Origin: Nitrosomonas europaea
Lineage (GTDB): Bacteria; Pseudomonadota; Gammaproteobacteria; Burkholderiales; Nitrosomonadaceae
Assembly (NCBI RefSeq): GCF_900167395.1
Contig: NZ_FUWK01000002.1
Span: forward strand, 120,001 to 152,000
Length of the DNA stretch: 32,000 bases
Direction: 5' to 3'
Position 1 is the stretch's first letter; the number at the start of each line of letters is the position of its first letter. This document shows positions 1,565 through 32,000 of the stretch, one piece after another. A program made the position numbers and the translations under genes. The notes below the pieces were generated by a model. That model saw only the letters and a program-made list of their open reading frames with translations. It searched no databases and was not told where the DNA came from.

Positions 1565-1586
1565 CCTTCTCCCCTTTCATGGTAAG

Positions 1587-2594: not shown

Positions 2595-2617
2595 ATGATC
2601 GAATATTCTTAGCGAAA

Positions 2618-3424: not shown

Positions 3425-3427
3425 TTT

Positions 3428-4354: not shown

Positions 4355-4477
4355 AGCAGAAATCCGAATTTGCGGCAATGCAGCCATTCTAGCATGGCCG
4401 CCCCCGGTACGGATGATGACGGATGACTGCGCCTTCATCCCGGCCCCCAAATCCATGATTACAGGAGACATGCAATA
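4355..4477. promoter_or_regulatory. divergent hemC / ppc promoter region (inferred from gene arrangement only)
   Basis: This is a 123-bp spacer between divergently oriented starts. I did not map any specific -35/-10 elements. Confidence 0.3.
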
Positions 4478-7279: not shown

Positions 7280-7532
7280 TATTTCCCGGAAACCACCTGC
7301 CTGAATTTCTGTGGTTAAAATAACTGCAACTCACGATAACAGCGGATAATATTTAAGTATAGGATTACTGGCCGGTTACCGGCATTAATTAAACTGTGAA
7401 TTGCCTGGCTTGCATTCATGCTGGCGTCGTATTTAATCGAACCAGGAAACAGACCGGAAGCCATGAATTGAAGCGTTACTCCTTCAACCGGTTTTTTCCT
7501 GAACCTGACTGTCGTCACTACCGGGAGGAATA

Positions 7533-9518: not shown

Positions 9519-9537
9519 CAGGCCTCGTAACGTAATT

Positions 9538-12368: not shown

Positions 12369-12636
12369 TATCGATATCTAAACAGAAAAATAAAAATGAG
12401 ATCACCTCGCCATAACCCGGGCGACCTGGAAAACCTGTCACCAGCCGATGAGGCAAGCAGCATAAACGGCCGGAATACGATAATGGAAAACGGTTATCTC
12501 ACTTCGGAATATCGTAATACAACCTGATCCCCGTAAAAACTTGGAAAACCGTACAATCCACGCTCTATCGAACAAAACAGAGTATCCGCAAGAGGACAGT
12601 AAAGTCCGTTCATTTATTTCAGGAAGGATGTCATCA

Positions 12637-13347
12637 ATGAAACCCGTCGCAATTCTCAGGTTTTTCCCGATCGAAGGGCCCGGCTATTTTGCCACATTTC
12701 TCAACCACCATCACATACCATGGCAACTGATCTGTCTGGATGAAGGAACGCCTCCGCCGAAAAATATGAACAAATACAGCGGCCTGGTATTGATGGGCGG
12801 GCCGATGAGCGTACATGATGATCTACCCTGGATCGGCTCGGTACTGTCACTCATCAGGCAAGCGACAAGTACCGATATTCCGGTACTGGGCCACTGCCTG
12901 GGTGGGCAGCTTTTATCAACCGCTCTGGGAGGTGTGGTAACAAACAATCCGATCAAGGAACTGGGCTGGGGACGCGTGGATGTCACTTCTTCATCCATCG
13001 CGCATGACTGGTTTGGTACTGATCTCACGGAATTCGATGCCTTTCACTGGCACGGCGAAACTTTCAGCATACCGGCAAACGCAGTCAGGCTGCTATCCAG
13101 CCCTTACTGCCCCAATCAGGCCTTTGCCCTGGGGATTCACCTGGGCCTGCAGTGTCATATCGAAATGACCGCCGAGATGGTAAAAATATGGTGTGAGGCA
13201 AATGCTGCCGAGCTGGTACAAAGCCGGGAAAGTCCCGCTGTCAGCAGCAGTGAAGAGATTCAGGCGAATCTCGATGACCGCATTGCTGCACTGCAATCAA
13301 TCGCAGATCGCCTGTACAAAAAATGGATTAAGGCATTGAAAAACTGA
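12637..13347 (+). CDS. class-I (type 1) glutamine amidotransferase-like protein
   Basis: The nucleophile elbow is VLGHCLGGQLL and a His-x-Glu is found in QCHIEM. I chose the ATG at 12637, 9 nt after GGAAGG. The 12541 start in the ORF track is a TTG with no equivalent N-terminal homology. Confidence 0.8.
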   Translation: MKPVAILRFFPIEGPGYFATFLNHHHIPWQLICLDEGTPPPKNMNKYSGLVLMGGPMSVHDDLPWIGSVLSLIRQATSTDIPVLGHCLGGQLLSTALGGVVTNNPIKELGWGRVDVTSSSIAHDWFGTDLTEFDAFHWHGETFSIPANAVRLLSSPYCPNQAFALGIHLGLQCHIEMTAEMVKIWCEANAAELVQSRESPAVSSSEEIQANLDDRIAALQSIADRLYKKWIKALKN

Positions 13348-13374
13348 TGGTCGCCACCAACACGCAACCATCAG
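13339..13374 (-). terminator. candidate intrinsic terminator for rpoH
   Basis: An 8-bp stem pairs ctgatggt (13344..13351) with accatcag (13367..13374), with a 15-nt loop. On the minus strand it is followed by TTTTT (13343..13339). The large loop makes it a weak candidate. Confidence 0.35.
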
Positions 13375-13403
13375 CCCAAGGCATGTTCATGATTCGTACC
13401 GGT

Positions 13404-14258
13404 TCAGATGGCGATCTCGGCTCGCATTTTCTTCATGGCTTTTGCTTCGATCTGACGCACACGCTCAGCAGAAACGCCCAGCTCATCAGCCAGCTCATGC
13501 AAGGTGGCAGCCTTGTCTTCCCGCAGCCAGCGTGCCTCGATGATACGGCGGCTGCGTTCATCCAGACTGTCCAGCGAATTTTTCAGCCGGGCGTGTGTCA
13601 GTCGCTCCAACTGCTCTTTTTCCAGCTCCCTGGAGGGATCGGATCCATCCGTCAGCCAGGCAATCGGGCTGAAATCATCTTCATCACTGTCCGTCACCGG
13701 TTCCAGTGAAATATCCCGGCCGCTGAAACGTGTTTCCATCTCGACGACTTCCTCAGCTTTGACACCCAACTGTTCCGCCATCGAAGCCACTTCAGCCTGG
13801 CTCATCGTATCCAGCCCTTTTTTCATGCTGCGCAGATTGAAAAAAAGCTTTCTCTGCTGTTTGGTCGTGGCGATCTTGACCAGCCGCCAGTTACGCATGA
13901 TGAATTCATGAATTTCCGCCCTGATCCAGTGAATCGCAAAGGAAATCAGCCGGACACCCCGTTCAGGGTCAAACCGTCTGACAGCCTTCATCAGGCCGAT
14001 ATTACCCTCCTGTATCAAGTCAGCATGCGGCAGCCCATATCCCAGATAACCGCGTGCAATGGTAACCACCACGCGTAAATGGGAAAGCACCAGCTGATGC
14101 GCTGCATTGACGTCACCCTCTTCTCGCATACGTTTAGCCAGGGAAGCTTCCTCTTCCCGGGATAAGACAGGAAAGCTGCTGGTCGCACGAATATAGCTGT
14201 CCAGATCACCGCCTGCCATCACCGGTAAAGCCATAATCTCATTCATGATTTTCTCCAT
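13404..14258 (-). CDS. rpoH: RNA polymerase sigma-32 (heat-shock sigma factor)
   Basis: The RpoH box QRKLFFNLR is present, along with DLIQEGNIGLMKAVRRFDPERGVRL and near-colinear similarity to E. coli RpoH. The start could be 14258, 14246 or 14234. Confidence 0.93.
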   Translation of the reverse strand: MEKIMNEIMALPVMAGGDLDSYIRATSSFPVLSREEEASLAKRMREEGDVNAAHQLVLSHLRVVVTIARGYLGYGLPHADLIQEGNIGLMKAVRRFDPERGVRLISFAIHWIRAEIHEFIMRNWRLVKIATTKQQRKLFFNLRSMKKGLDTMSQAEVASMAEQLGVKAEEVVEMETRFSGRDISLEPVTDSDEDDFSPIAWLTDGSDPSRELEKEQLERLTHARLKNSLDSLDERSRRIIEARWLREDKAATLHELADELGVSAERVRQIEAKAMKKMRAEIAI

Positions 14259-14532
14259 TGATTTTCAGAATGTACTTGCGTGATTTGAAGCGAATAGACA
14301 TATCCTAGCACTCTTAGTTCATGAGTGCTAATTTCATCAGTACCTGATTATCCCTCTTAACCGCATATTCACGCTGCTGCTCAATCAAAACAATCTCTCA
14401 TATATTAAATTCAGATAAAGAAATCATTATTTATTATTTTTATAAATAAGAGATTATTGTTATCTTTGCTTCGCTCGAACGACGTCGAGAGCCATAAACC
14501 AATAAACCTACAACTATAAAACAGAGGCATAA
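14259..14532. promoter_or_regulatory. AT-rich divergent intergenic region between rpoH and the outer-membrane barrel gene
   Basis: This is a 274-bp spacer with long A/T runs around 14400..14470. It holds an 8-bp inverted repeat, tagcactc (14306..14313) and gagtgcta (14323..14330). I did not map any promoters. Confidence 0.3.
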
Positions 14533-16107
14533 ATGAAACACCGTACATGGATATGGCTTTATCTGATTACTCTCCCATCGCTGACAAACATGGTTCATGC
14601 AAAAGAAACGCTTCCAGACAACCAGAATGGCCAGACAACAGCAGTCGATTCCGGTTCTGCAGCATCCAAGGAAGTAATTATACAAACTGCGGCCAACCAG
14701 CAAACTGAATCGACCAAACCAACATTCATCGCTGGTAATGCACCCTCCAGTTTCTACCAGCGCGCGCGCAGTTACAGCACCCACCCGGAATCCGATCCGC
14801 CCCGTTATGTTCGCACGCTGTCCAAAACGGGGATCGACGCTTTCAAAAATCTTTACTGGCTGGATGTCGGGTTGGATTACCGCGTACGTTATGAACATCG
14901 CCACAATGATATCCGGCGCTCACGTATCACCACGGATGACCCTGTTCTCCTGCGAACACGGGCTTATCTGGGTATCAAAGAAATCCTGGATCCTCTGCGC
15001 TTCGTCGTCGAATTTGAAGATGCACGCCGCTATAACGGTAAATTCCCTAAAGATAACCGCGACTGGAATGAATTCGAACTGATCCAGACCTATGGCGAAC
15101 TCTATTTCAAAGATGCGCTGGGGCGAGATGACCTGGGTAATTATCGTCCTGTCAGAATCCGGGGTGGTCGCATGGCATGGGAAACGCTGGATCGGCGCTT
15201 ACTGGGTAGTAATCAATGGCGCAACACTACCAATAATTTTGAAGGCTTCCGCGTTACACTCGGCCAGGAATCGAATGACTGGGAGTTCGATGCATGGGGA
15301 GTGCAACCGGTCATAAGACTGATAGACAAATTTGACCGGCGCGACAAAGGCCAGTGGTTTTATGGCGCAATCGGACATTTTCGTCAATGGTCAAAAATAA
15401 TCACCATTCAACCCTACTATATGGGGTTAATACAGGATGACGATGGTGGAACACGAGTCAAACGTGAAATCCACTCTCCTGCCATACGAGCCTATGGTGT
15501 TGTGCCCAACACTGAAGTCGATTTCGATCTCGGTGCCATTTATCAATTTGGCCGTGACGGTGGACAGAAAAAATCAGCACATGCCTATCTGCTCGAATTC
15601 GGCTATACCTTCCAGCAGGCTGCCTGGAAGCCCCGCGTCAGTGCCTTTTACGGTTATGTAAGTGGTGATCGTGATCCTAACGATCGCACAAACAACCGTT
15701 TTGAAAGATTCTTCGGTTTTGCACGCCCCTGGTCAGCTGATGACTACATCATTATGGAAAACATCCAGGCACCGAAAATCAAGGTAGAGTTCCAGCCACA
15801 TCCCGACTTACAAATCGACGGAGGCTATAACGGCTTCTGGCTCGCCAGTAAGACTGACCGTTTCAACAACCTTCTCAACGGCAGTGGAAATAACCGTGAT
15901 CGCAGCGGGAACAGTGGCAGCTTTATCGGGCATTCAGCCGATATTCGCGCCCGTTACAAGCTGACACCTCATATCAGTACCACACTAGGCTATTCACACT
16001 GGTTCAACGGCGGATTCATAAAAAACCAGCAGTTGGCGGAACTGGGAGAAACCACTGCCGGGACGGATTTTTTCTATGTTGAAGTCGCTATCAGCGCATT
16101 CAAATAA
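14533..16107 (+). CDS. outer-membrane beta-barrel protein, alginate-export (AlgE-like) family candidate
   Basis: A signal peptide ends in ...MVHA/KE, a low-complexity linker follows, and then alternating aromatic/polar beta-strand patterns. The C-terminus is ...VEVAISAFK. It is rich in Arg. A GAGG lies 6 nt upstream. The sbp start lies 28 nt after its stop. Confidence 0.55.
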
Positions 16108-16135
16108 CATCAACTTATCTATAAAAGGGAATCAA

Positions 16136-17143
16136 ATGAAATTCAATATATGGTTGTCAGTCGGATTACTGACGTTTGCTCTGGCAGGTGCCAGTCAGGC
16201 ATTTGCTGACCGGACTCTTCTCAATGTTTCCTACGATCCGACACGCGAGTTGTATGAGGAATATAACCGCGAGTTCATCCGCTACTGGCAGGAAAAAACC
16301 GGGGAGAAAATTACTGTCAAACAGTCACATGGCGGCTCCGGCAAACAGGCACGTGCGGTCATTGACGGTGTGCCTGCAGATATAGTGACACTTGCCCTTG
16401 CTCATGACATTGACGCGATCAGCGAGCAATCGGGGCTGATCCCGGCAGAATGGCAGAAACGCTTACCCAACAACAGTTCGCCCTATCTCTCAACGATCGT
16501 CCTGCTGGTACGCAAAGACAATCCCAAAGGAATCAGGGACTGGGATGATCTGATCAAACCGGGTGTCGCCGTCATAACGCCCAATCCGAAAACATCGGGT
16601 GGTGCACGCTGGAATTATCTGGCGGCGTGGGGTTTTGCACTGAAAAAATACGATGGCGATGAAGCAAAAGCACAAGAGTTCCTCACCCGACTTTATAAGA
16701 ATGTCTCAATACTTGATTCAGGGGCACGTGGATCAACCATCAATTTCATCCAGCGCGGCATAGGGGATGTTCTGATTTCCTGGGAAAACGAAGCTTTTCT
16801 GGCGCTCAAGGAATATGGCCCGGAGAAATTCGAAATAATCATTCCCTCGATCAGCATTCTTGCCGAACCCCCTGTCGCTGTCGTCGACAAGAATGTCGAC
16901 AAACATGGCGTACGTAATATTGCCCAGGCCTACCTCGAGTACCTGTACGACAAAAAAGGGCAGGAAATTGCGGCACGCAACTTCTATCGACCGAGCGATC
17001 CGGAAATCGCCAAAAAATATGCTCATCAGTTCCCGGCAATCAATCTGTTTACGATCAATGAAGTATTTGGCGGCTGGCCGCAAGCCCAGAGCATCCACTT
17101 CAAGGACGGCGGCCTGTTCGACAAAATCTATGTAAATCAATGA
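16136..17143 (+). CDS. sbp: periplasmic sulfate/thiosulfate-binding protein
   Basis: The signal peptide is [53 protein letters not shown] and [17 protein letters not shown] are Sbp/CysP hallmarks. The ATG at 16136 follows AAGGGA. Confidence 0.92.
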
Positions 17144-17201
17144 TCGATTCTGTATCCGGCACATTGATTGCTCATAACCTCAAACTCGAAAAGAATCAGA
17201 A

Positions 17202-17507
17202 ATGACAGTACTGATAGTGGGTGGAGATTACATTGCATCTCTCAAACAGAGAATCACGGCACACGGCTATTCCCGTATAGAACACTGGAACGGTCGTAAA
17301 AAAGGGTTCAACAAGCGAGCACTGCCCGGCAGAACAAAGCTGGTCGTGATTATCTACGATTACGTCAGCCACAACCTTGCCAATTCAGTGAAAGATCAGG
17401 CCAGCCGTATCGGGATCCCGATGATTTTCTGCCGTCATGCCATGCACGAAATCGACACGATCTTCGATGAGAAAAAAGCTGAAGAAAGTTGTTGCAACTT
17501 TGTATAA
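17202..17507 (+). CDS. small DUF2325-type protein
   Basis: 101 aa. VLIVGGD...LVVIIYDYVSH...IPMIFC matches my recollection of DUF2325. The C-terminus ends in ...ESCCNFV. Confidence 0.55.
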   Translation: MTVLIVGGDYIASLKQRITAHGYSRIEHWNGRKKGFNKRALPGRTKLVVIIYDYVSHNLANSVKDQASRIGIPMIFCRHAMHEIDTIFDEKKAEESCCNFV

Positions 17508-17618
17508 GTAATGAACAAGTCCAGTGAAGCAAGAAGTGCGCAGATCCCGTTGAAATGGATGAACGATTTACCCGCTTCTCTTGCTTCAATTCAGATAGCT
17601 TCTTTGCTGGAGTTACAA

Positions 17619-18530
17619 ATGCTGCCATCAACGTTAAAAACACTGGTACACGGTGATTATATGATTCGTACGATAGAACGCATTATCACAAGCACCGGTT
17701 TTTCCTTACAACACTCTGATAATGGCGAGATTACTGGCCTTTTTTACCATTGCAAGTTATCAAGCGCTTATCAACCTGTTTTTGAAGCTGCCCGGAACAA
17801 TATCATTGGACAAGAAGCTCGTATCCGCGCTGATTTAAATGGAAATGGAGAAATACAACTTTCTCCCTGGCATATATTCGCACTCGCCCCCGACGATGAA
17901 CAGCTCATCAAGCTGGATCGCCTCTGCCGAACGATTCATGCCCTCAATTTTCTTGACAATATTACTAACAAACAGATGAAGCTGTTCGTCAGCGTACAGC
18001 CCCGTTTGCTGGAAAGTGTCAAGGATGATCATGGCAGCGCATTTGAGCAAATACTCGACATTATCGGAATACGTACCTCCAGAATCGTTATCGAGATCCC
18101 AGTTGAAGCCAATCGTGACTGGCGGCTGCTGAAACGCGTGATCATGAACTATCGTGCACACGGGTATCTGATCTCAGTCAATTACAGCGGTACCAATAAT
18201 GACCGGATATCCGAACTTGGCAAGCTATATCCTAATGTCATACGTATTGATGCACGTGATCTGTTACGGCGTAGCGTACTGGATCCGTTGATAGTCACTG
18301 CTCATAATCAAGGAGCAGATGTTCTGGTAGGCAACATAGAAACTTCATATCAACTGACAGATGCAATACACGCAGGTGCAGATCTGCTACAGGGAAATTT
18401 CCTGGCCAGATATTCGCGTAAAGCCGACAACATGCTGACTCCCTTTTCCTGGCAGATACCAGACGAGCGGAATGGATACAGATTCGATAATGAATCACTG
18501 CAGGAAAATCAACCTTACAGAAGCATATAA
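17619..18530 (+). CDS. EAL-like domain protein with degenerate catalytic motifs (paralogue 1)
   Basis: The EAL-fold blocks are recognisable: YQPVF, EARIR, VSVQP, VIEIPVE, VNYSGTN, IRIDA, GNIET and LQGNFL. I chose the start at 17619 (GGAG 6 nt upstream) because MLPSTLKTLV aligns with MNRTTAKPFTV of paralogue 2. Alternative starts are 17511, 17559 and 17661. Confidence 0.6.
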   Translation: MLPSTLKTLVHGDYMIRTIERIITSTGFSLQHSDNGEITGLFYHCKLSSAYQPVFEAARNNIIGQEARIRADLNGNGEIQLSPWHIFALAPDDEQLIKLDRLCRTIHALNFLDNITNKQMKLFVSVQPRLLESVKDDHGSAFEQILDIIGIRTSRIVIEIPVEANRDWRLLKRVIMNYRAHGYLISVNYSGTNNDRISELGKLYPNVIRIDARDLLRRSVLDPLIVTAHNQGADVLVGNIETSYQLTDAIHAGADLLQGNFLARYSRKADNMLTPFSWQIPDERNGYRFDNESLQENQPYRSI

Positions 18531-18620
18531 CCCGTTCTATTTACGAGACATCGAATCATGTACCCGAAAACAGCCTTGCATATAAAAACAGCGACAAACC
18601 ATCTTGAAAGGAGCGCTTTC

Positions 18621-19409
18621 ATGAATAGAACCACTGCCAAGCCTTTTACCGTAATGGATGAGTTCGAATTGATCAAAGCTGCTACCGACTACTCGCTGGA
18701 ACAGGATGAAAATGGCCGGATCAGTGGAAATTTCTACCATTGCAAACTGACCAGTGCCTTTCAGGTAATCCTCGATATTCATGAAAATAACATAATTGGG
18801 CACGCAGCCTACATTCGCTCTGAATCAAATGGTGAAGTCTCGCTCTGGCCCTGGCAGGTATTTGCACTTGCTTCCAAAGATGAACAATTGATCGACCTCG
18901 ACCGCCTGTGCAGAGCAATTCACGCCCTGAATTATTTTAAGAAGAACTTTGACACCAACACTGGTCAGCTTTTCCTGAGTGTACATCCACGCCTGCTGAG
19001 CAGCATCCAGAATGAACACGGACGAACATTCAAAGATTTTCTGGATTTAACCGGAATCAGTACTTCACGGATCGTGATTGAAATACCGCCAGCCCTGAAT
19101 CACGACTGGAAACTGCTGCAGAAACTGATCATTAACTACCGCTCATACGGTTATCAAATAGCCCTTAATTTCAGCAGTACCAACGGACACTGGTTACTGG
19201 GAACAGATGATCTCCATCCGGACATCCTGATCGTGCAAGCACACGAATTATTACACTATCAGCTGAATGACTATCCGGAAGACAACAGCACCCGTGATGC
19301 CGGCTTCCGCCTGCATGTCAGAAAAATCGAAACGCAAGAGCAGCTGACAGCGGCAAAGCAAGCGGGCGCACATTACCTGCAGGGTAACTTTCTAGGAAAA
19401 ACAGTATGA
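18621..19409 (+). CDS. EAL-like domain protein with degenerate catalytic motifs (paralogue 2)
   Basis: AAGGAG lies 7 nt upstream of the ATG at 18621. The protein is colinear with paralogue 1: FYHCKL, NNIIG, ALA..DEQLI.LDRLCR.IHALN and TSRIVIEIP. The EAL glutamate is replaced (AAYIR) and the DDFGTG block reads LNFSSTN. Confidence 0.6.
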   Translation: MNRTTAKPFTVMDEFELIKAATDYSLEQDENGRISGNFYHCKLTSAFQVILDIHENNIIGHAAYIRSESNGEVSLWPWQVFALASKDEQLIDLDRLCRAIHALNYFKKNFDTNTGQLFLSVHPRLLSSIQNEHGRTFKDFLDLTGISTSRIVIEIPPALNHDWKLLQKLIINYRSYGYQIALNFSSTNGHWLLGTDDLHPDILIVQAHELLHYQLNDYPEDNSTRDAGFRLHVRKIETQEQLTAAKQAGAHYLQGNFLGKTV

Positions 19410-19474
19410 CTCACAACATGATCCCGGCAATCACCCAAAAGGATTTTTACAATCGAATAACAGGAGTCTGAATT

Positions 19475-20308
19475 TTGAGCACTTTCAAACAATACAGTGT
19501 ACTACCAGGCTTCAATCTGGCACTGGGATTTACCCTGCTTTACCTGAGTCTGGTCGTACTGATTCCTCTGTCGGCAGCATTCATCCACAGCGCGAAACTG
19601 ACCTGGCCGGAATTTTGGAGTACGGTGACTGCACCCCGAGTCGTCGCGTCCTATCGGCTGACATTTGGAGCCTCGTTTGCAGCCGCAGTGGTTAATACAT
19701 TTTTCGGATTGCTGGTAGCCTGGGTACTAGTACGTTACCCGTTTCCGGGTAAGCGCCTGGTCGATGCCCTGATCGATCTGCCTTTCGCACTACCCACCTC
19801 CGTTGCCGGTATCACGCTCACCGCAATCTATGCGGGTAACGGCTGGCTCGGTCAGTATCTGGAACCATTGGGAATCAAGGTCGCCTTCACCCCGGTCGGT
19901 GTTTTCGTGGCACTGACATTCATCGGGTTGCCGTTCGTCGTTCGCACCGTTCAACCTGTACTGGAAGATATCGAGAAAGAACTGGAAGAAGCTGCTGCCA
20001 TGCTGGGCGCAACACGCTGGCAGACTTTCCGGTACGTTATTTTCCCGGCAGTTCTACCTGCACTGACCACCGGTTTTGCACTGGCTTTTGCCCGCGCCAT
20101 CGGAGAATACGGCTCCGTTATTTTTATTGCCGGCAATATCCCGATGGTCTCGGAGATCACGCCATTACTCATCATCACCAAACTCGAACAATATGATTAC
20201 GCTGGTGCAACGGCCATTGCCGTCGTGATGCTGGTGATTTCATTCATTCTTCTGCTGATCATCAACCTGCTGCAGTGGTGGGTTCGTCATCGCAGCATAA
20301 AGGCATAA
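19475..20308 (+). CDS. cysT: sulfate/thiosulfate ABC transporter permease
   Basis: The TTG start lies 8 nt after AGGAG. It has 6 transmembrane segments. The EAA loop is [21 protein letters not shown]. Confidence 0.9.
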
Positions 20309-20317
20309 AGGAAAATC

Positions 20318-21196
20318 ATGACTGCCGTCCCGTTACTCCAAACCTCTCCGGCACCGCACAAGGTGGTTACGCAGGAATCACCGTGGGCGCGCTGGACACT
20401 CATCCTGCTGGCCCTCTCCTTCCTGTCGCTTTTTCTTTTACTGCCCCTGGTAGCAGTTTTCTTTGAGGCACTGAGAAAAGGATGGGAAGTTTATCTTGCA
20501 GCCATCACTGAACCCGATGCCCTCGCCGCCATCCGCCTGACCCTGATTGCAGCCGCCATCGCCGTACCGCTCAACCTGATATTCGGTATCGCAGCCGCCT
20601 GGGCAATTGCCAAATTTGAGTTCCGCGGCAAAAGTATCCTCACCTCCCTGATCGATCTGCCATTCTCCGTCTCTCCCGTCGTCGCCGGATTGATTTACGT
20701 ACTGATATTCGGCCTGCAGGGCTGGATCGGTCCATGGCTGCGGGAGCATGATCTTTCCATCATTTTTGCCGTGCCCGGCATCGTTCTGGCAACGATTTTC
20801 GTGACTGTGCCGTTCATTGCACGTGAGCTGATTCCACTGATGCAGGCACAGGGAAGCGAGGAGGAAGAAGCCGCCATCATTCTGGGCGCAAGTGGCTGGC
20901 AGACACTGTGGTACGTCACGCTTCCCAACATCAAATGGGGATTGCTGTATGGCACCATTCTCTGCAATGCCCGAGCAATGGGCGAGTTTGGCGCCGTCTC
21001 GGTCGTTTCCGGACATATTCGCGGCCTGACCAACACTCTTTCCCTGCACGTCGAAATTCTCTACAACGAATACAACTTTGTTGCTGCTTTTGCAGTGGCT
21101 TCCTTGCTGGCATTACTTGCACTGATTACGCTGGTACTGAAAACGCTGGTTGAAGCAAAAGTGGCACAACAAACCTCCAGAGGAAATCATTCATGA
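20318..21196 (+). CDS. cysW: sulfate/thiosulfate ABC transporter permease
   Basis: The EAA loop is [22 protein letters not shown]. It is paralogous to cysT. Its stop overlaps the cysA start as ATGA. Confidence 0.9.
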
Positions 21197-22281
21197 CTAT
21201 CGAAATACACGATCTCTCCAAGCAATTCGGCTCTTTCACCGCACTGAACGACATCAATCTGAAAGTCAACCCGGGAGAGCTGCTCGCGCTGCTGGGTCCT
21301 TCCGGCTCCGGTAAAACCACTCTGCTGCGGGTCATTGCCGGCCTTGAAACAGCTGATTCCGGTCAAGTGCTGTTCAACGAGGAAGATTCAACCGACAAAC
21401 ACATTCGTGATCGGCATGTCGGATTTGTCTTCCAGCATTACGCACTTTTTCGCAATATGACCATTTTCGAGAACGTAGCATTCGGCTTGCGTGTACGCCC
21501 TAGAAAACAGCGCCCCAACGCTCCGGAAATCAATCACCGCGTGACTGAACTGCTGCAACTGGTGCAACTCGACTGGCTGGCAGATCGTTATCCGCACCAG
21601 CTTTCCGGGGGGCAACGCCAGCGCATCGCATTGGCACGGGCACTGGCAGTCGAACCCAGTGTTCTGTTACTGGATGAGCCATTCGGTGCGCTCGATGCCA
21701 AAGTGCGCAAGGAGCTGCGTGCCTGGCTGCGCAAACTGCACGATGACATGCACATTACCAGTGTCTTCGTGACACATGATCAGGAAGAAGCACTGGAAGT
21801 GGCAGATCGGATCGTCGTCATGAACCGGGGCCGTATCGAACAAATCGGCACTCCCGATGAAGTCTATGAGAAACCGGCCAACCCGTTCGTATATGAATTT
21901 CTTGGACACGTCAATCTGTTCCACGGGCGTGTGCATCAGGGCCATGCATGGATTGGCGATCTCGAAGTCGATGCCCCGGAGTACTCAGAAGCAGAAGATC
22001 TCAGTGCCATCGCCTATGTGCGGCCGCATGACATCGAAGTGGACCGGACATTAAACGGTGAACCGGCTCTGGCTGCTCATATCGTCCATATTCTCGCTAT
22101 CGGACCGGTCGTACGGCTGGAGCTGGCAGGCAAAGACAATCAAAGTACAAACAGTATTTATGCCGAGATCAGCAAGGAGCGTTTTCGTGAGTTGCAACTG
22201 GCAAGAGGAGATCAGGTTTTCATCAAGCCGCGCAAGCTCGATCTGTTTCCAAACCATGCCCAAAACGGATCGATACATTGA
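21193..22281 (+). CDS. cysA: sulfate/thiosulfate ABC transporter ATP-binding protein
   Basis: Walker A is GPSGSGKTT, the signature motif is LSGGQRQR and Walker B is LLLDEPF. A C-terminal TOBE-like regulatory domain is present. Confidence 0.95.
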
Positions 22282-23219
22282 TGACAGCCTCTGAAAAAAC
22301 GGTTTTGCCGGAATTATCCTATCTGCGCACGACAATCAGCAACGTTGTCATTGAGTTGCGTAATTTACGCGAGACTTCACTGGAGCATCGGCAGAGACTC
22401 AACAATCCGCCCAAACTTCCCTCACGCAAAACGCTGGCGGACATCATCGACAAATTGAGTGCCGCATTGTTTCCCAACCGCCTGGGTCAACCCGACCTGA
22501 CCGGAGAAAGTATCGATTACTTCGTAGGGTACACACTGGATACCGCCCTGCGCGATCTGTCGGCAGAGGTAATCCGGGAGCTCCATTTTGCTTCCGGGCT
22601 CGAGGCCGTCAGCCATACGGTTCGAGAGCGGGCGGTGGAAATCACGCATGTATTTGCCGGGCAGTTGCCTGCCATACGCCATATTCTGGACAGTGACATT
22701 CGTGCAGCCTATGAAGGCGATCCGGCTGCACACAATATCGACGAGGTACTGGTCTGCTACCCAGGGATCACCGCCATCATCCATTACCGGCTGGCACATG
22801 AACTGCACAAGCTGGGAGTCCCTCTGATTGCACGCATGATTTCAGAAATCGCGCATTCTCTGACCGGCATAGAAATACATCCCGGAGCCCGGATTGGTGA
22901 CAGTTTCTTCATAGATCACGGAACCGGAGTCGTCATCGGGGAAACGGCCATCATCGGTCGTAAAGTACGCCTGTATCAGGCAGTCACTCTAGGCGCCAAA
23001 CATTTCCCGGTAGATGAACAAGGTGCCTTGATCAAGGGAAATCAGCGTCATCCTGTCGTCGAAGACGATGTCGTGATCTACGCGGGAGCGACCATCCTCG
23101 GGCGTATCACTATCGGACATGGCTCCACGATAGGCGGAAATGTCTGGCTGACACACGACATCCCCCCCGGGAGTCATATCACCCAGGCGCAGATGCGCCA
23201 TGAAAAAGTACCCGGTTAA
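22281..23219 (+). CDS. cysE: serine O-acetyltransferase, long form with a ~130-aa N-terminal helical extension
   Basis: The left-handed beta-helix hexapeptide region is GARIGDSFFIDHGTGVVIGETAIIGRKVRLYQAVTLG...VVIYAGATILGRITIGHGSTIGGNVWL. The ATG at 22281 overlaps the cysA stop as TGATG. The ORF-track start at 22278 is a TTG. Confidence 0.85.
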   Translation: MTASEKTVLPELSYLRTTISNVVIELRNLRETSLEHRQRLNNPPKLPSRKTLADIIDKLSAALFPNRLGQPDLTGESIDYFVGYTLDTALRDLSAEVIRELHFASGLEAVSHTVRERAVEITHVFAGQLPAIRHILDSDIRAAYEGDPAAHNIDEVLVCYPGITAIIHYRLAHELHKLGVPLIARMISEIAHSLTGIEIHPGARIGDSFFIDHGTGVVIGETAIIGRKVRLYQAVTLGAKHFPVDEQGALIKGNQRHPVVEDDVVIYAGATILGRITIGHGSTIGGNVWLTHDIPPGSHITQAQMRHEKVPG

Positions 23220-23327
23220 TTTCAATTGCATATCTTTATTTCGTATATGCGAATAACGCCGGATTATTCAGAATAGTTCGGTGACACAAAACGCTGTTTC
23301 TTCCCAACAATCTTCAGGAGAATTTAA

Positions 23328-24245
23328 ATGACTGATATTCATCAGGCACAGACCGCATTAGGTGATGTTGCGGCCCGTACACTTGCCAACGCGACTAAAA
23401 CCATTCCCATGATGGGCACGATCACGCCACGGTGGCTAACTCATCTGCTGCAGTGGGTTCCGGTCGAGGCGGGTATCTACCGCGTCAATAAAGTCAAAGA
23501 TCCTGACGAGGTTGAAGTCGACTGCTCCAACAAGGATGAGCGCGAATTACCTGCCACTTACGTAGATTATGAGGAATGGGGGCGTGAGTATGTACTCAGT
23601 GCAGTCAATACCGTGCTGGATGTCCACACTCGCGTCGCCGATCTTTACAGCAGCCCGCACGATCAGACCCGCGAGCAACTCCGGCTGATCATTGAAACCA
23701 TCAAGGAACGCCAGGAAAAAGAACTGGTGAACAACAAGGAATACGGTTTGCTCAACAATGTTGCCAGAAACATGAAGATCAAAGCGCGTACAGGCGCACC
23801 CACCCCGGATGATCTGGATGATCTGATCTCACTCGTCTGGAAGGAACCGGCCTTCTTTCTGGCACATCCCAAAGCCATTGCGGCATTTGGTCGGGAGTGC
23901 ACACGGCGTGGCGTACCTCCTCCCACCGTATCGATGTTCGGCTCACAATTCCTTACCTGGCGCGGGCTACCCCTCATTCCATGCGACAAGATAGGCATTA
24001 CCGGAGGGAAAACAAGTATCCTGCTGCTACGCACGGGTGAAAGCCGGCAAGGGGTGGTAGGACTCTATCAGCCGGGACTGCAAGGCGAACAGGGCATGGG
24101 ATTATCTTTACGTTTCATGGGGATCAACCATAAGGCCATCGCTTCTTATCTGGTTTCACTGTATTGCTCACTGGCCGTGTTGACTGAAGATGCACTCGGT
24201 GTTCTGGAAAATGTCGAAGTGGGTAAATACCATGAATACAAATGA
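23328..24245 (+). CDS. Family 2A-type encapsulin shell protein (HK97-fold nanocompartment, SrpI-like)
   Basis: 305 aa, with AGGAG 8 nt upstream. The blocks ITPRWL, VEAGIYRVNKV, SAVNTVLDVHTRV, REQLRL, WKEPAFFLAHPKAIAAFGRECTRRGVPPP, GESRQGVVGLYQPGL, GMGLSLRFMGIN and ASYLVSLYCSLAVLTEDAL match my recollection of SrpI-type Family 2A shells. There is no cNMP-binding insertion. The downstream cargo-type desulfurase also supports the call. Confidence 0.8.
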   Translation: MTDIHQAQTALGDVAARTLANATKTIPMMGTITPRWLTHLLQWVPVEAGIYRVNKVKDPDEVEVDCSNKDERELPATYVDYEEWGREYVLSAVNTVLDVHTRVADLYSSPHDQTREQLRLIIETIKERQEKELVNNKEYGLLNNVARNMKIKARTGAPTPDDLDDLISLVWKEPAFFLAHPKAIAAFGRECTRRGVPPPTVSMFGSQFLTWRGLPLIPCDKIGITGGKTSILLLRTGESRQGVVGLYQPGLQGEQGMGLSLRFMGINHKAIASYLVSLYCSLAVLTEDALGVLENVEVGKYHEYK

Positions 24246-25857
24246 GTTCAACCAGTGGATAGATAAAGTATCGGGTGAGGCATCCGCTTATGTACCCGAT
24301 ATTGAGTCACTGACGCAAATGGGCAATGCGTTATTCAACACTCCTCCGCTTTCCCGATCGACCGAACCGCCTGCTTTGACGGTTCCCGGTGCTGAAGTCA
24401 GTCATTCACGCCCGGCCACCGGGTCGAGCTACCCTTCGACCATTCCACTGCCTTGCGAAGCGGAACTGAAAGCCCTGTTCACACCGAATCAGTATCGTGC
24501 GCCGGCTCATATCAGCCTGTCTGATTCAGATCATTCCGGTCATCCACCGTGGGAATCATCATTTTATTTCCTCGATGAAGGGATAGCACCCGAGCGCCAT
24601 GACCGGGCAGCACAAATTCCTGCTGCCCATCCCCCCTTCGATATCCATGCGATCCGGCGTGATTTCCCCATTTTACAGGAACACGTCAATGGGCATTCCC
24701 TGGTCTGGCTGGACAATGCGGCAACGACACAGAAACCTCAGGCCGTCATCGATCGGCTGACCTATTTCTACACGCACGAAAATTCCAATATTCACCGGGC
24801 AGCACATGAACTGGCAGCCCGTGCGACAGATGCGTATGAGGAATCGAGGAATAAGGTTCGCCAGTTTCTCAACGCCGCATCCACCGATGAAATCATCTTT
24901 CTGCGGGGAACGACGGAAGCGATCAACCTCGTTGCCCAAAGCTGGGGGCGGCAGCATATCAGCGCCGGAGACGAGATCATCATTACCTGGCTGGAACATC
25001 ATGCCAATATCGTTCCATGGCAGATGCTGTGTAATGAAACGGGCGCCCGATTGCGCGTGGTACCGGTCGATGAGGATGGACAGGTTTTGCTGGAAGAATA
25101 TCAAAAGCTGCTCAACTCACACACCAGACTCGTTGCATTCTCACAGGTTTCAAATGCACTCGGGACCATCACACCTGCCAGACAAATGGTGGAAATGGCA
25201 CACCGCGTCGGTGCACGTGTACTGGTCGATGGAGCACAATCGGTTTCACACATGCGGGTCGACGTCCAGCAACTCGATTGTGACTGGTTCGTTTTTTCCG
25301 GGCATAAGGTATTCGGCCCGACCGGTATTGGTGTTCTATATGGCAAGACAGAACTGCTCAACGACACACAGCCATGGCAGGGTGGCGGCAATATGATTCA
25401 AGATGTCACTTTCGAAAAGACAGCTTATCACGGTGCCCCTGCCCGGTTCGAGGCGGGGACCGGTAATATTGCCGATGCAGTAGGACTGGGCGCCGCAATC
25501 GACTATGTGGAACGTATCGGTCTTGAAAATATCAGCCGCTACGAGCACGAATTGATGACCTATGCTACCGGGTGCCTAAAATCGATAGCAGGACTGCGAC
25601 TCATTGGTACCGCACCAGATAAAGCAGGTGTACTGTCTTTTACCCTGAAGGATTTCTCTACGGAAGAAGTCGGTACTGCTCTCAATCGTGAAGGTATTGC
25701 GGTACGTGCCGGTCATCATTGTGCCCAGCCTATTCTGCGCCGCTTCGGCGTGGAAAGTACCGTCCGCCCCTCGCTGGCTTTTTATAACACGTATACGGAT
25801 ATCGACAGGCTGGCCGCTGCCATAGACCGTATCCGGGGAAAGAAAAACGCATTCTGA
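24232..25857 (+). CDS. group II (SufS/CsdA-type) cysteine desulfurase with a ~135-aa disordered N-terminal extension (putative encapsulin cargo)
   Basis: The core starts near 24637 (FDIHAIRRDFPIL...LDNAATTQKP). The PLP lysine lies in SGHK (Lys codon 25306..25308) and the catalytic Cys in RAGHHCAQP (codon 25720..25722). The first in-frame ATG after the ORF-track start that gives a sensible N-terminus is 24232, which overlaps the shell gene by 14 nt. Confidence 0.88.
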   Translation: MNTNEFNQWIDKVSGEASAYVPDIESLTQMGNALFNTPPLSRSTEPPALTVPGAEVSHSRPATGSSYPSTIPLPCEAELKALFTPNQYRAPAHISLSDSDHSGHPPWESSFYFLDEGIAPERHDRAAQIPAAHPPFDIHAIRRDFPILQEHVNGHSLVWLDNAATTQKPQAVIDRLTYFYTHENSNIHRAAHELAARATDAYEESRNKVRQFLNAASTDEIIFLRGTTEAINLVAQSWGRQHISAGDEIIITWLEHHANIVPWQMLCNETGARLRVVPVDEDGQVLLEEYQKLLNSHTRLVAFSQVSNALGTITPARQMVEMAHRVGARVLVDGAQSVSHMRVDVQQLDCDWFVFSGHKVFGPTGIGVLYGKTELLNDTQPWQGGGNMIQDVTFEKTAYHGAPARFEAGTGNIADAVGLGAAIDYVERIGLENISRYEHELMTYATGCLKSIAGLRLIGTAPDKAGVLSFTLKDFSTEEVGTALNREGIAVRAGHHCAQPILRRFGVESTVRPSLAFYNTYTDIDRLAAAIDRIRGKKNAF

Positions 25858-25866
25858 ACACCATGC

Positions 25867-25900
25867 GGTACAGATAACAGGCCTGCATAATTTCTGTACC
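25867..25900. other. 8-bp inverted repeat between the desulfurase stop and the cysB start
   Basis: ggtacaga (25867..25874) pairs with tctgtacc (25893..25900), with an 18-nt loop. No U-tract follows. It could be a weak terminator or a protein-binding palindrome. Confidence 0.2.
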
Positions 25901-25951
25901 ACATCCATTCCTCCACGCCACCACACACGTATCGACAACAGGTATAAACAC

Positions 25952-26869
25952 GTGAATTTTCAGCAACTCCGCATCATCAGTGAAACAATTCGGCAGAATT
26001 ACAATTTGACGGAAGTGGCCAATGCCCTGTTTACCTCGCAATCCGGGGTCAGCAAGCATATCAAAGATCTGGAAGATGAACTGAACATCGATCTGTTCAT
26101 CCGAAAGGGCAAACGCCTGACCGGACTGACCGCACCGGGCAAGGAACTGGTCAAAATCGTTGACCGCATTCTGCTGGATACCAGAAATATCAAACGACTG
26201 GCAGAACAGTTCAGTCAGCATGACCAGGGTGAACTGACCGTGGCTACCACCCACACCCAGGCACAATACGCCTTACCGGATGTTGTTAGGCAATTCAAGG
26301 AAATATTCCCAAAAGTACATCTCGTACTTCACGAATCCAGTCCCGGCGAGATCGTATCCATGCTGCTGAATGGCCAGGCGGATATTGGCATCGCAACCGA
26401 AGCGCTGGAGAGTACTTCTGAACTGGTATCGTTTCCGTACTATACCTGGCATCATGCGATCATCGTACCGGCAGAACATCCGCTGCAATCGATACACCCT
26501 CTCACACTCGAAGCTGTTGCGCAATTTCCGATCATTACCTATCACAAGGGTTTTACCGGGCGTTCCCGAATCGATCAGGCGTTCTCTCGCGCGGAATTGA
26601 CACCCAATATCGCCATGTCCGCTCTCGATGCAGATGTCATCAAAACCTATGTCACTCTGGGTATGGGAATTGGTATCGTTGCATCTGTCGCATTTACACC
26701 GGAACGGGATACAAAACTGATCAAACTGGATGGTTCTCATCTGTTCGAGCAGAATACCACCTGCATATCCATACGACGTAACCACTATCTGCGCGGATAC
26801 GCCTACCGGTTCATCGAGCTGTGCATCCCTTCACTGAGCAGAGATACCATCTGCTCAGAAATACAATAG
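25952..26869 (+). CDS. cysB: LysR-family transcriptional regulator of the cysteine regulon (CysB/Cbl type)
   Basis: The GTG start aligns residue-for-residue with the E. coli CysB N-terminus (MNFQQLRII vs MKLQQLRYI). TSQSGVSKHIKDLEDEL, ATTHTQAQYALP, ADIGIATEAL, TGRSRIDQAF and DADVIKTYVTLGMGIGIVAS are all present. Confidence 0.9.
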   Translation: MNFQQLRIISETIRQNYNLTEVANALFTSQSGVSKHIKDLEDELNIDLFIRKGKRLTGLTAPGKELVKIVDRILLDTRNIKRLAEQFSQHDQGELTVATTHTQAQYALPDVVRQFKEIFPKVHLVLHESSPGEIVSMLLNGQADIGIATEALESTSELVSFPYYTWHHAIIVPAEHPLQSIHPLTLEAVAQFPIITYHKGFTGRSRIDQAFSRAELTPNIAMSALDADVIKTYVTLGMGIGIVASVAFTPERDTKLIKLDGSHLFEQNTTCISIRRNHYLRGYAYRFIELCIPSLSRDTICSEIQ

Positions 26870-26881
26870 AACGACTACTGA
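26783..26881. repeat. direct repeat copy 1 (the functional 3' end of cysB and 12 nt beyond its stop)
   Basis: I aligned this by hand to 27971..28068. There is a perfect 37-bp core (26809..26845 = 27998..28034), about 6 substitutions and 3 small indels overall. It contains a 9-bp-stem hairpin, ctgagcaga (26834..26842) and tctgctcag (26850..26858). Confidence 0.85.
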
Positions 26882-27178
26882 TGCGAGATTGGCATGAGTC
26901 CATATTCCAGCGTTTCAAATGACTGATTGGTGCCGTCGTATAGCGTAAACTCTTACAGTTCGGCGCGTTCAGAACTTCATGGATGGTTGTCCGGCTGACA
27001 CAGAAGCGTTCCGCCAGCTGTGTTATTTTCCAGAGTCAAATTTAATAAAGATGCAAAATTTCCTGATGATCCGGTAAAGTCAGGCATGTGCATCTATGTA
27101 CGTTCATCTGCAGTATTTTTCTGAATACTGTAAATAACACTAGAAATTCTTATATATAAAAGAAGAAGGGGAAATTGC

Positions 27179-27940
27179 GTGTTTAAAAGAGTCGGTATTT
27201 TTGTTGCGCTCGTTACATTGAGTTTGATATTTAATCAACCCGCCACGGCTGGCAGAACCGTAGAGGATTTTCAGGTTTGGGGAAATATTACTGCACTTGG
27301 TAATTTTGGCTTCGTCAATCCGGGCAACCCCGATTTGAAGAAATTCAGATGGTGGATGGAAGGACAGGGACGATTCGGTAATGATTCCTCACAGTTTACG
27401 CAGGCTATCATCCGCCCGGGTTTGGGCTATGCGATCACTGATAAAATCATCATCTGGGCGGGCTATGCCTGGATTCCCTCGGATGAACCGCTGGTACCAA
27501 AGTCAGGGCTCCCGTTCGATGAGCATAGAATCTGGCAGCAGGTAACCTGGGCGGATGAATTTTCTTTCGGTAAATTGTCATTGCGCAGTCGCTTTGAGCA
27601 GCGCTTCTTTGATCACAATGCACCTGTTTCTGGTAGTGACGATGTGGCTTACCGTTTCCGTCAGCTGGTAAAACTGGCGATTCCAGTCGCCATGATCGAT
27701 CCCAATCTTACTTTTATCATTCAGAACGAATTGTTCATCGGGTTGAACACGGTTAGTAACCCGGGCTTTATTTCTCGCGGCTTCGATCAGAATCGCGCTT
27801 TTGTGGGTCTGGGTTACAAAGTTCATCAGAATGCGACCGTTGAACTGGGTTATATGAACCAATTCATTGACAGGCGCCATAATCCTCGTCCTGATCAAAT
27901 GATGCACAATTTTGCAGTTAACCTGTTTCTGAATTTCTAA
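27179..27940 (+). CDS. outer-membrane beta-barrel protein, DUF2490-type candidate
   Basis: The GTG start follows AAGGGGA. The signal peptide ends in ...NQPATA/G. Alternating beta-strand patterns are present, and the C-terminus ...AVNLFLNF ends in Phe as in typical outer-membrane proteins. Confidence 0.5.
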   Translation: MFKRVGIFVALVTLSLIFNQPATAGRTVEDFQVWGNITALGNFGFVNPGNPDLKKFRWWMEGQGRFGNDSSQFTQAIIRPGLGYAITDKIIIWAGYAWIPSDEPLVPKSGLPFDEHRIWQQVTWADEFSFGKLSLRSRFEQRFFDHNAPVSGSDDVAYRFRQLVKLAIPVAMIDPNLTFIIQNELFIGLNTVSNPGFISRGFDQNRAFVGLGYKVHQNATVELGYMNQFIDRRHNPRPDQMMHNFAVNLFLNF

Positions 27941-27970: not shown

Positions 27971-28068
27971 CACTATTATTTGCGCGGATGCCTGCCAGTT
28001 CATCGAGCTGTGCATCCCTTCACTGAGCAGAGATCATCTGCTCAGAAATACAGCAGAACGATTACTGA
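27971..28068 (+). pseudogene. decayed duplicate of the cysB 3' end (direct repeat copy 2)
   Basis: This is the same ~98-bp sequence as 26783..26881. It carries a 3-nt insertion, two 2-nt deletions (the first shifts the frame relative to cysB) and loss of the stop (caatag becomes cagcag). The hairpin arms are intact and only the loop is shortened. Confidence 0.7.
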
Positions 28069-28412
28069 AACCAGCTGGTCTTTTCCGGATTCTCGTTCGG
28101 AGTACGATTATCTGCATTGTCCGAGGTACGGTTATCTGTATCAGAAGGCCAGGAAGAAAATGGAAACGGGCGTTGTTCGCTGTTGAATGTCAGGAACAGA
28201 CTGATCTGGTAATCATACATTGCCAGCTGGCGGCCCAGTTTGAGCAGTCGGGTATTGGCCTGCCCGGTCAGGACAGTCGATCCGAGCTGAAACAGGGCCA
28301 GCAGCACGATCAGAAATTTCACACTCCCCTGGATAAACATGAACAGCAACATAAAAAGTACACGAATCCAGGTTTCAGTACTCTGCAATCGTTGTTTTAC
28401 TTCGTCATTCAT
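28062..28412 (-). CDS. small membrane protein, DUF4389-type
   Basis: TWIRVLFMLLFMFI...LFQLGSTVLTGQANTRLLKLGRQLAMYDYQISLFLTFNSEQRPFPF matches my recollection of DUF4389. I chose the ATG at 28412, because the 28427 start in the ORF track is a TTG. Confidence 0.55.
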   Translation of the reverse strand: MNDEVKQRLQSTETWIRVLFMLLFMFIQGSVKFLIVLLALFQLGSTVLTGQANTRLLKLGRQLAMYDYQISLFLTFNSEQRPFPFSSWPSDTDNRTSDNADNRTPNENPEKTSWFQ

Positions 28413-28462
28413 AAAGTGATGTCTCAAACGGGTTGATGAATTCGGCTATATATTTACTACTT

Positions 28463-31445: not shown

Positions 31446-32000
31446 TCACAACGCCTTGCCTGCTTTTGGAGAAACCAGCGATTCAGCCTCGATTCGCACA
31501 TGCCATTTCTCCATCCACTCACCCAGCGCTTCGGCCGGCATCGGTCGCGAGATGAAATTACCCTGTGCCAGATCACAACCGGTCTGGCGCAGTAATTCCC
31601 AGTCTTCACGATCTTCCACCCCTTCGGCAACGGCTTCCATATTCAACTGCTTTGCCAGGGCCAGACTGGCATCATATATCGCGCGCAGTGTTTCATCGCC
31701 CGAGGCCCGATGTACGAACCCCTGATCGATCTTGAGTTCATCAAACGGAATATCCCGCAATTGTGTCAGTGAGGAATGGCCGGTACCAAAATCATCGATA
31801 GACAAATGAAAACGTTTCAGACGCAAGCGGGTTAAAATCTCCAGCGAGACACGCACATCCCCCATCAGCTGGCTTTCAGTGATTTCCAGTACGATTTTGC
31901 CGGGAAGAATTTCAGCCTCGGCAGCCAGCCTTACCACAGCATCCTGAAAATCGAGCGATGTCAGATTATCCATCGATACATTGACGGCCACTTTCAGCTC
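31446..32000 (-). CDS. canonical EAL-domain c-di-GMP phosphodiesterase, C-terminal part (5' end lies outside the window)
   Basis: The frame stays open to base 32000 (ELKVAVNVS...). The full catalytic set is visible: VNVS, EITES, SIDDFGTGHSSL, LKIDQGF, AEGVED and AQGNFISRP. Confidence 0.85.
   Translation of the reverse strand, partial: ELKVAVNVSMDNLTSLDFQDAVVRLAAEAEILPGKIVLEITESQLMGDVRVSLEILTRLRLKRFHLSIDDFGTGHSSLTQLRDIPFDELKIDQGFVHRASGDETLRAIYDASLALAKQLNMEAVAEGVEDREDWELLRQTGCDLAQGNFISRPMPAEALGEWMEKWHVRIEAESLVSPKAGKAL

Follow-up and report, generated by a model that had tools for sequence, protein, structure and literature searches.

What do two overlapping genes at the end of a sulfate-uptake cluster in Nitrosomonas europaea encode, and what might their products do with sulfur? 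The genes occupy positions 23328 to 25857 of a 32,000-nucleotide stretch of contig NZ_FUWK01000002.1 (positions 120,001 to 152,000, forward strand; this whole stretch is hereafter the window, and coordinates are counted within it). They specify a 305-amino-acid (aa) protein and a cysteine desulfurase. The reading favored here, with a probability of about 0.93, is that one encodes the shell and the other the cargo of a desulfurase encapsulin of Family 2A (SrpI-type), and that both are expressed within a sulfate-uptake and sulfur-starvation cluster whose distal part they form. The molecular identity of shell and cargo is near certain, and nothing contradicts the identification of the pair; for function, storage of sulfur is the leading reading, by analogy with studied systems. 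The pair is already known: it has been annotated, its family is published and solved structurally, and its genomic context is the typical one.

The 305-aa open reading frame (ORF) was proposed as a Family 2A shell gene in a first-pass annotation made from the sequence alone. The ORF map places the ORF where that annotation had it, and the seven peptide blocks cited as conserved in such shells are all in its translation (ITPRWL, EAGIYRVN, VNTVLDVHTRV, KEPAFFLAHPKAIAAFGRECTRRGVPPP, GESRQGVVGLYQP, LRFMGIN, and SYLVSLYCSLAVLT). Profile searches bore out the family as well. PF19307, "Type 2A encapsulin shell protein SrpI-like," was the sole match in a Pfam scan (E 2.6e-106), and the protein scored 527.9 bits on the equivalog model NCBIfam NF041162 (encap_f2a), for which the cut-off is 380. 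In the PDB, it matched the SrpI shell of Synechococcus elongatus PCC 7942 (6x8m, E 5e-150; PMC8049743) and the shell of Acinetobacter baumannii 118362 (8t6r, E 3e-148; Benisch, Andreas & Giessen 2024, PMC10836720), with 73 and 72% identity, respectively, over 300 ungapped residues. Given such identity to cryo-electron microscopy structures, the HK97-type fold predicted for the N. europaea protein is not in doubt. Mycobacterial shells of the same family, historically named Major membrane protein I (MMP-I; 8wol, 8won, 9ksl), also matched (E about 2e-132) and are more distant in sequence than 6x8m and 8t6r; the three groups of structures span E 1e-132 to 5e-150.

The size of the protein had been taken to fit Family 2A rather than Family 2B, whose shells carry a cyclic nucleoside monophosphate (cNMP)-binding insertion, and the Pfam scan and the comparison with 2B shells uphold this. 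Shells of Family 2B (9bje, 9bhu, 9bix), which enclose terpene cyclases, have a homologous HK97-fold core; however, they are about 470 aa long, and their structures align to the N. europaea shell only from residue ~220–238 on, i.e., with their C-terminal halves. The 2B profile NF041163 likewise covers the shell only with profile positions 210–449, at 430 bits, and is outscored by the 2A model (528 vs. 430). The Pfam scan of all 305 residues found no cNMP-binding domain. From its length, the missing cNMP domain, and the restriction of 2B matches to C-terminal regions, it follows that the shell is of the 2A form; its partner is a desulfurase.

The downstream gene had been described as a complete SufS/CsdA-type desulfurase with an extra N-terminal domain and as the cargo of this shell family, and both descriptions stand. 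The protein scored 884.3 bits on NCBIfam NF041166 (f2_encap_cargo1, family 2A cargo cysteine desulfurase), above the cut-off of 800, and matched PF00266 (Aminotran_5) with E 9.6e-149. Its catalytic domain, from about residue 136, retrieved solved type II desulfurases from the PDB (best 8kg1, E 3e-185), and its catalytic motifs are present: the lysine and cysteine predicted to bind pyridoxal 5′-phosphate (PLP) and to form the persulfide, Lys359 and Cys497, are intact in the sequence. The desulfurase profiles begin only at residue 140 (SufS model) and residue 158 (Pfam Aminotran_5), leaving the 135-aa N-terminal domain, rich in proline (13%), serine (12%), and alanine (11%), uncovered.

This domain carries counterparts of both cargo-loading motifs, LARLANEFFS and AASPYYFLDG, named as conserved by Nichols et al. 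2021 (PMC8049743); the motif comparison was limited to these two motifs of that eLife paper. Among 75 homologous N-terminal domains, a motif 1 regular expression matched 52, at a similar position, and the motif 2 core, [FYW][FY]F[LIVM][DENQS], was present in 62. With a median of 205 aa and a range of 63–456 aa in these homologues, the N. europaea domain is short and not exceptional. Among the long ORFs of the window, only the desulfurase has both motifs, and the motif 2 core is found nowhere else. A loose motif 1 match in the helix-turn-helix region of the LysR regulator was taken as chance, and a second cargo in the window was rejected. Encapsulation of the desulfurase through the N-terminal domain has been shown for S. 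elongatus and A. baumannii (PMC8049743, PMC10836720), and by homology the motifs predict the same physical encapsulation in N. europaea.

The desulfurase could start at 24190, 24211, or 24232, the first of which gives the longest form and a 56-nucleotide overlap with the shell gene. The ATG at 24232, by contrast, gives the 14-nucleotide overlap that the first-pass annotation had reported, and in the window it straddles the codons for His and Glu (CAT GAA) close to the C-terminus of the shell (...YHEYK). The start at 24232 is better supported because the resulting 541-aa product is identical to CAD84484.1 and because 63 of 74 related loci have an ATG exactly 14 nucleotides ahead of the stop codon of the shell gene. 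Exact matches from N. europaea ATCC 19718 were also found for the shell (CAD84485.1) and the upstream serine acetyltransferase (CAD84486.1), and NCBI and UniRef name the exact shell and cargo proteins family 2A encapsulin nanocompartment shell and cargo. The locus tags are probably NE0574 for the shell and NE0573 for the cargo; the former is suggested by the fit of the twelve genes from regulator to porin to the range NE0572–NE0583, a numbering that is itself inferred.

Conservation of the pair was assessed in 78 related loci from Nitrosomonas, Methylophilaceae, Methylococcaceae, Azoarcus, Aquabacterium, Hyphomicrobium, and others, covering Beta-, Gamma-, and Alphaproteobacteria as well as other phyla, with adjacency counted where the downstream DNA sufficed (n = 74). 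The desulfurase gene adjoined the shell gene in all 74. An acetyltransferase gene lay directly 5′ of the shell gene in 60 of 73 loci, and cysT or cysW fell inside the flanks of 34 of the 78. The identical shell sequence occurs on many metagenome contigs with gene order unchanged. In the N. oligotropha lineage (loci L010–L015, locus coordinates ~7500–16600), the order is sbp-EAL-shell-desulfurase-cysT-cysW-cysA-acetyltransferase, so that the encapsulin pair sits inside the transporter operon and not at its end.

Shell and cargo genes close a co-directional, tightly packed cluster that runs from a porin gene to the acetyltransferase gene, with a CysB-family regulator gene immediately downstream (Table 1); the gene calls at the cluster start (porin and Sbp) recur in identical contigs. 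The cysA gene overlaps cysW, and the start of the acetyltransferase gene overlaps the cysA stop codon, which suggests translational coupling at both junctions; a 108-nucleotide spacer precedes the shell gene. The acetyltransferase passes the EpsC model NF041874 (171.2 bits, cut-off 150) and stays under the cut-off of TIGR01172 cysE (172 bits vs. 210.65), and it appears to be a dedicated paralogue, not the main CysE. It carries an N-terminal extension of ~135 aa ahead of its hexapeptide domain. Four operon types have been defined for desulfurase encapsulins, and that of N. europaea is the acetyltransferase-shell-desulfurase type (“AT-Enc-CD”; Benisch et al., 2024, PMC10836720). Among published neighbors of Family 2A shell genes, Aminotran_5 is found at 95%, Hexapep at 56%, Rhodanese at 49%, ABC-transporter permease at 38%, and LysR at 27% (PMC8049743, Supplementary file 2). 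Since a neighborhood of acetyltransferase, ABC transporter, and LysR genes is thus already published, the operon context is not new.

Two studied systems allow a closer comparison. In S. elongatus, the SrpI shell and its CyD desulfurase resemble the N. europaea pair in combining a SufS-type cargo, whose N-terminal loading domain bears both motifs, with an upstream serine acetyltransferase gene and a link to sulfate-starvation genes; encapsulation raised desulfurase activity ~7-fold, and the system was strongly induced by sulfate deprivation (PMC8049743). The S. elongatus loading domain is longer, at 225 aa, and the host differs, N. europaea being a chemolithoautotrophic ammonia oxidiser. In N. 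europaea, the genes lie on the chromosome at the tail end of an sbp-cysTWA operon, whereas srpI is described among neighboring sulfur-metabolism genes. The srp genes of S. elongatus are plasmid-borne. The A. baumannii system shares the order acetyltransferase-shell-desulfurase with N. europaea and is the source of the mechanistic model, namely a shell with T = 1 symmetry, a loading domain that binds discontiguously, and storage of elemental sulfur; its loaded shells accumulate elemental sulfur, and its operon was induced ~10-fold by sulfur limitation (PMC10836720). Unlike in N. europaea, that operon has four genes, of which a rhodanese gene is the first, and the loading domain is ~225 aa long with five partly conserved motifs. 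The remark in the first-pass annotation that the physiological role of desulfurase-loaded shells is still open is therefore partly out of date, as elemental sulfur storage has been shown for one such Family 2A shell (Benisch et al., 2024, PMC10836720).

By homology to the SrpI and A. baumannii shells, which are T = 1, 60 copies of the HK97-fold protein would self-assemble into an icosahedral shell of ~24 nm. The 135-aa N-terminal domain, which analogy with its homologues predicts to be disordered, would tether the desulfurase to the inner shell surface through contacts made by LTQMGNALF and SSFYFLDEG. The pores of the shell would admit L-cysteine by diffusion, and the PLP enzyme would convert it to L-alanine plus a persulfide on the enzyme by means of Lys359 and Cys497. 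With no sulfur acceptor inside, sulfane sulfur would be expected to build up as polysulfide or elemental sulfur, so that the shell may serve as a sulfur store or sequestration compartment. In N. europaea, assembly, loading, and sulfur deposition are each predicted by homology, as is induction of the two genes by sulfur starvation; indirect evidence for the latter is that they run in one direction with sbp-cysTWA, adjoin a CysB-family regulator gene, and belong to a cluster co-induced by irradiation.

Regulation of the cluster has been glimpsed once in N. europaea. In an RNA sequencing study, the cluster NE0572–NE0583 was co-upregulated under low-dose ionising radiation, alongside iron and redox responses (PMC11024918). 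That study labels NE0573 as sufS, NE0575 as an acetyltransferase, and the CysB-like regulator as cbl, and does not mention the encapsulin. The spacer upstream of the shell gene contains a perfect inverted repeat rich in AT, GCATAT-N11-ATATGC, whose T-N11-A form is that of LysR boxes. It lies in a block that an intergenic alignment of four Nitrosomonas loci shows to be conserved, and the perfect repeat is unique in the window, where copies with up to 2 mismatches occur at chance level. It is a candidate LysR-type box or internal CysB/Cbl-dependent promoter for shell and cargo, but only as a suggestion. A sigma-70 promoter scan called none in the spacer; from 14200 to 27200, promoter-like sites were fewer than in shuffled controls and terminator-like sites were at chance level, and transcription units were not defined. 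Scanning the entire window for Rfam families and tRNAs gave no matches, so the cluster holds neither a riboswitch nor an RNA gene.

Several points weigh against the encapsulin reading or against storage as its function. The desulfurase-encapsulin literature cited here contains no demonstration of sulfur storage in vivo in a native host. The sole N. europaea expression data are those on irradiation, not sulfur starvation, and a literature search found no sulfur-starvation expression data for this organism. About half of desulfurase-encapsulin operons include a rhodanese, proposed as the partner that remobilises sulfur; in Pfam and NCBIfam scans, no ORF of at least 150 aa in the window matched a rhodanese family, the remaining gaps being short, and neither did any of ten ORFs without assignment that lie upstream of the operon in related loci. 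The loading domain measures 135 aa against ~225 aa in both studied systems, and its motif 1 has Gly at a position where most homologues have Ala, so that loading efficiency could differ. Finally, a single-sequence AlphaFold2 model of the shell was uninformative (mean predicted local distance difference test score 36, predicted template modelling score 0.21), and for that reason the shell fold rests on sequence identity to solved structures.

Some of these points lend themselves to an alternative that keeps the desulfurase encapsulin and changes its purpose from a long-term sulfur store to a stress device, in which cysteine breakdown is confined under sulfur starvation or oxidative stress. Its outcomes might be release of alanine, delivery of sulfur to Fe-S and thio-cofactor pathways, or retention of reactive persulfide away from the cytosol. 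This is a live alternative, possible though clearly the less probable of the two. The irradiation response, with its iron and redox components (PMC11024918), fits it, as does the lack of a rhodanese in the operon to remobilise stored sulfur, and a role in redox stress was also raised by Benisch et al. (PMC10836720). However, sulfur deposits have been observed directly inside loaded shells of the 72%-identical A. baumannii system (PMC10836720); the neighborhood has no gene for a sulfur acceptor (sufE, sufU, or rhodanese) to which sulfur could be passed on; and the close linkage of the pair to sulfate import and to a regulator of the CysB family argues for sulfur economy over redox defence as such.

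Far less credible is the combination suggested by existing labels, a membrane protein beside a housekeeping SufS. UniProt still calls the 305-aa shell “Major membrane protein I,” a misnomer shared with the mycobacterial shells, the transcriptome study treats NE0573 as sufS (PMC11024918), and the catalytic domain does score above the cut-off of TIGR01979 SufS (570.8 bits). Yet Kyte-Doolittle hydropathy revealed no membrane segment, as the first-pass annotation had maintained for the shell: the maximum 19-residue mean was 1.61 for the shell and 1.01 for the desulfurase, vs. 3.16 for the CysT permease as control, and the single borderline window of the shell (residues 275–293) sits inside the gap-free alignment to the soluble, icosahedral SrpI shell, to which it is 73% identical. 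The desulfurase fell below the specific equivalog cut-offs for SufS (NF006791, 518.6 vs. 661 bits) and CsdA (NF008126, 422 vs. 607 bits) while passing the encapsulin-cargo model; it has an N-terminal domain with both loading motifs; and family scans found no sufBCD, sufE, or csdE genes in the window. This combination is refuted at the level of sequence. Least probable of all is that the shell gene is left over from a prophage capsid and lies beside a desulfurase gene by chance, a reading that synteny and the family models rule out. Although phage capsids have the HK97 fold in common with encapsulin shells (PMC10836720, PMC8346489), the window has no phage genes, its ORFs belong to housekeeping and sulfur metabolism, its guanine-cytosine content is even across the region, and the pair is syntenic at every assessable locus in several phyla.

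As a discovery the desulfurase encapsulin of N. europaea carries little weight: family, structure, cargo-loading principle, and neighborhood are all published, and NCBI already labels the proteins. The literature on the organism lags behind. Searches combining Nitrosomonas with encapsulin or “major membrane protein I” found no study of this system; among the entries listed in the catalogue of PMC8346489, only Nitrosomonas sp. Nm166 comes from the genus; and the 2024 transcriptome paper (PMC11024918) reads NE0573 as an Fe-S sufS and leaves the shell unmentioned. Its irradiation response of the sulfur cluster is to be re-read as induction of a sulfur-sequestering nanocompartment. As a tractable ammonia oxidiser with a heavy demand for iron, haem, and Fe-S clusters, N. 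europaea is a possible native host in which to pursue the question of a sulfur store in vivo, and its short natural loading domain with both motifs could guide minimal targeting tags for engineered Family 2A shells.

Table 1. Coordinates of the encapsulin genes, their sequence features, and the surrounding sulfate-uptake cluster in the window.
Feature	Position	Strand	Details
Outer-membrane porin, Alginate_exp family	14533-16107	+	PF13372, E 1e-107; cluster start
Sulfate-binding protein Sbp	16136-17143	+	NF008022, 519 bits
DUF2325 ORF	17202-17507	+	101 aa; directly after sbp, before the EAL ORFs
Two tandem degenerate EAL-domain ORFs	17511-18530, 18558-19409	+	PF00563, E 7e-37 and 1e-18
cysT, sulfate ABC transporter permease	19475-20308	+	TIGR02139, 428 bits
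cysW, sulfate ABC transporter permease	20318-21196	+	TIGR02140, 415 bits
cysA, sulfate ABC transporter ATPase	21193-22281	+	TIGR00968, 398 bits
Serine O-acetyltransferase, EpsC-type	22281-23219	+	312 aa; CAD84486.1, NE0575; “AT” accessory gene
Perfect AT-rich inverted repeat GCATAT-N11-ATATGC	23228-23250		In the 108-nucleotide acetyltransferase-shell spacer
Shine-Dalgarno-like AGGAGA	23316-23321	+	6 nucleotides 5′ of the shell ATG; conserved across four Nitrosomonas loci
Family 2A encapsulin shell gene	23328-24245	+	305 aa; profile, PDB, and exact database matches
Family 2A encapsulin cargo cysteine desulfurase gene	24232-25857	+	541 aa; 14-nucleotide overlap with shell gene
N-terminal cargo-loading domain (predicted)	24232-24636	+	135 aa; outside all desulfurase profiles
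Putative cargo-loading motif 1, LTQMGNALF	24310-24336	+	Residues 27-35; counterpart of published LARLANEFFS
Putative cargo-loading motif 2, SSFYFLDEG	24556-24582	+	Residues 109-117; counterpart of published AASPYYFLDG
Lys359, predicted PLP-binding lysine (SGHK)	25306-25308	+	Aligned to SGHK of solved desulfurase 8kg1
Cys497, predicted persulfide-forming catalytic cysteine (RAGHHCAQP)	25720-25722	+	Aligned identically in 8kg1
CysB/Cbl-family LysR regulator	25952-26869	+	305 aa; NE0572; NF009327, 444 bits vs. cut-off 402

The cluster also contains two EAL-domain ORFs between sbp and cysT. Compared with a canonical EAL domain at 31446–32000 on the minus strand, both have lost the catalytic Asn (SVQ or SVH in place of NVS), the DD pair (DDFG replaced by NY or NF), and the Lys (KID replaced by RID), and they are predicted to be phosphodiesterase-inactive because these residues are replaced. 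Their best PDB match is YkuI. An EAL ORF lies less than 400 nucleotides from sbp or cysT in 19 of the 78 related loci; homologues occur in loci L007, L008, L010–L016, L018, L019, L023, L025, L027, L030, L031, L034, and L035, and further in L058, L063, L065, L070, and others. The DUF2325 ORF that precedes them had no NCBIfam match, and contigs both identical and related keep it in its place after sbp. The encapsulin pair of Nitrosomonas and its methylotroph relatives is part of a sulfate-import operon that also includes DUF2325 and one or two degenerate EAL proteins. Degenerate EAL proteins might sense cyclic diguanylate (c-di-GMP) or another nucleotide and so couple sulfate uptake and encapsulin sulfur storage to a second messenger, with the spacer repeat acting as the own CysB/Cbl-dependent promoter of shell and cargo and the 135-aa loading domain as a minimal natural targeting tag; taken together, this is speculative and improbable.

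Other genes of the window lie outside the cluster. After the CysB-family regulator gene come a DUF2490 protein with a hydrophobic N-terminus (27179–27940, plus strand) and a DUF4389 membrane protein (28062–28427, minus strand), in the same order in identical contigs. Upstream, a 661-aa ORF (7533–9518, plus strand) had no Pfam match; in NCBIfam, its residues ~20–440 weakly resemble polysaccharide chain-length determinants and its C-terminal third tyrosine recombinases (E 3e-06), an unusual combination in which all scores are far under the cut-offs. It is followed on the minus strand by a conserved pair, a GTPase with DUF3482 (9538–10974) and a DUF2868 protein (10974–12368), which share base 10974. 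The housekeeping context comprises rpoH (13404–14258, minus strand) and, at 395–7279, hemC, hemD, hemX, and hemY for haem biosynthesis, minus-strand genes that diverge from one for phosphoenolpyruvate carboxylase.

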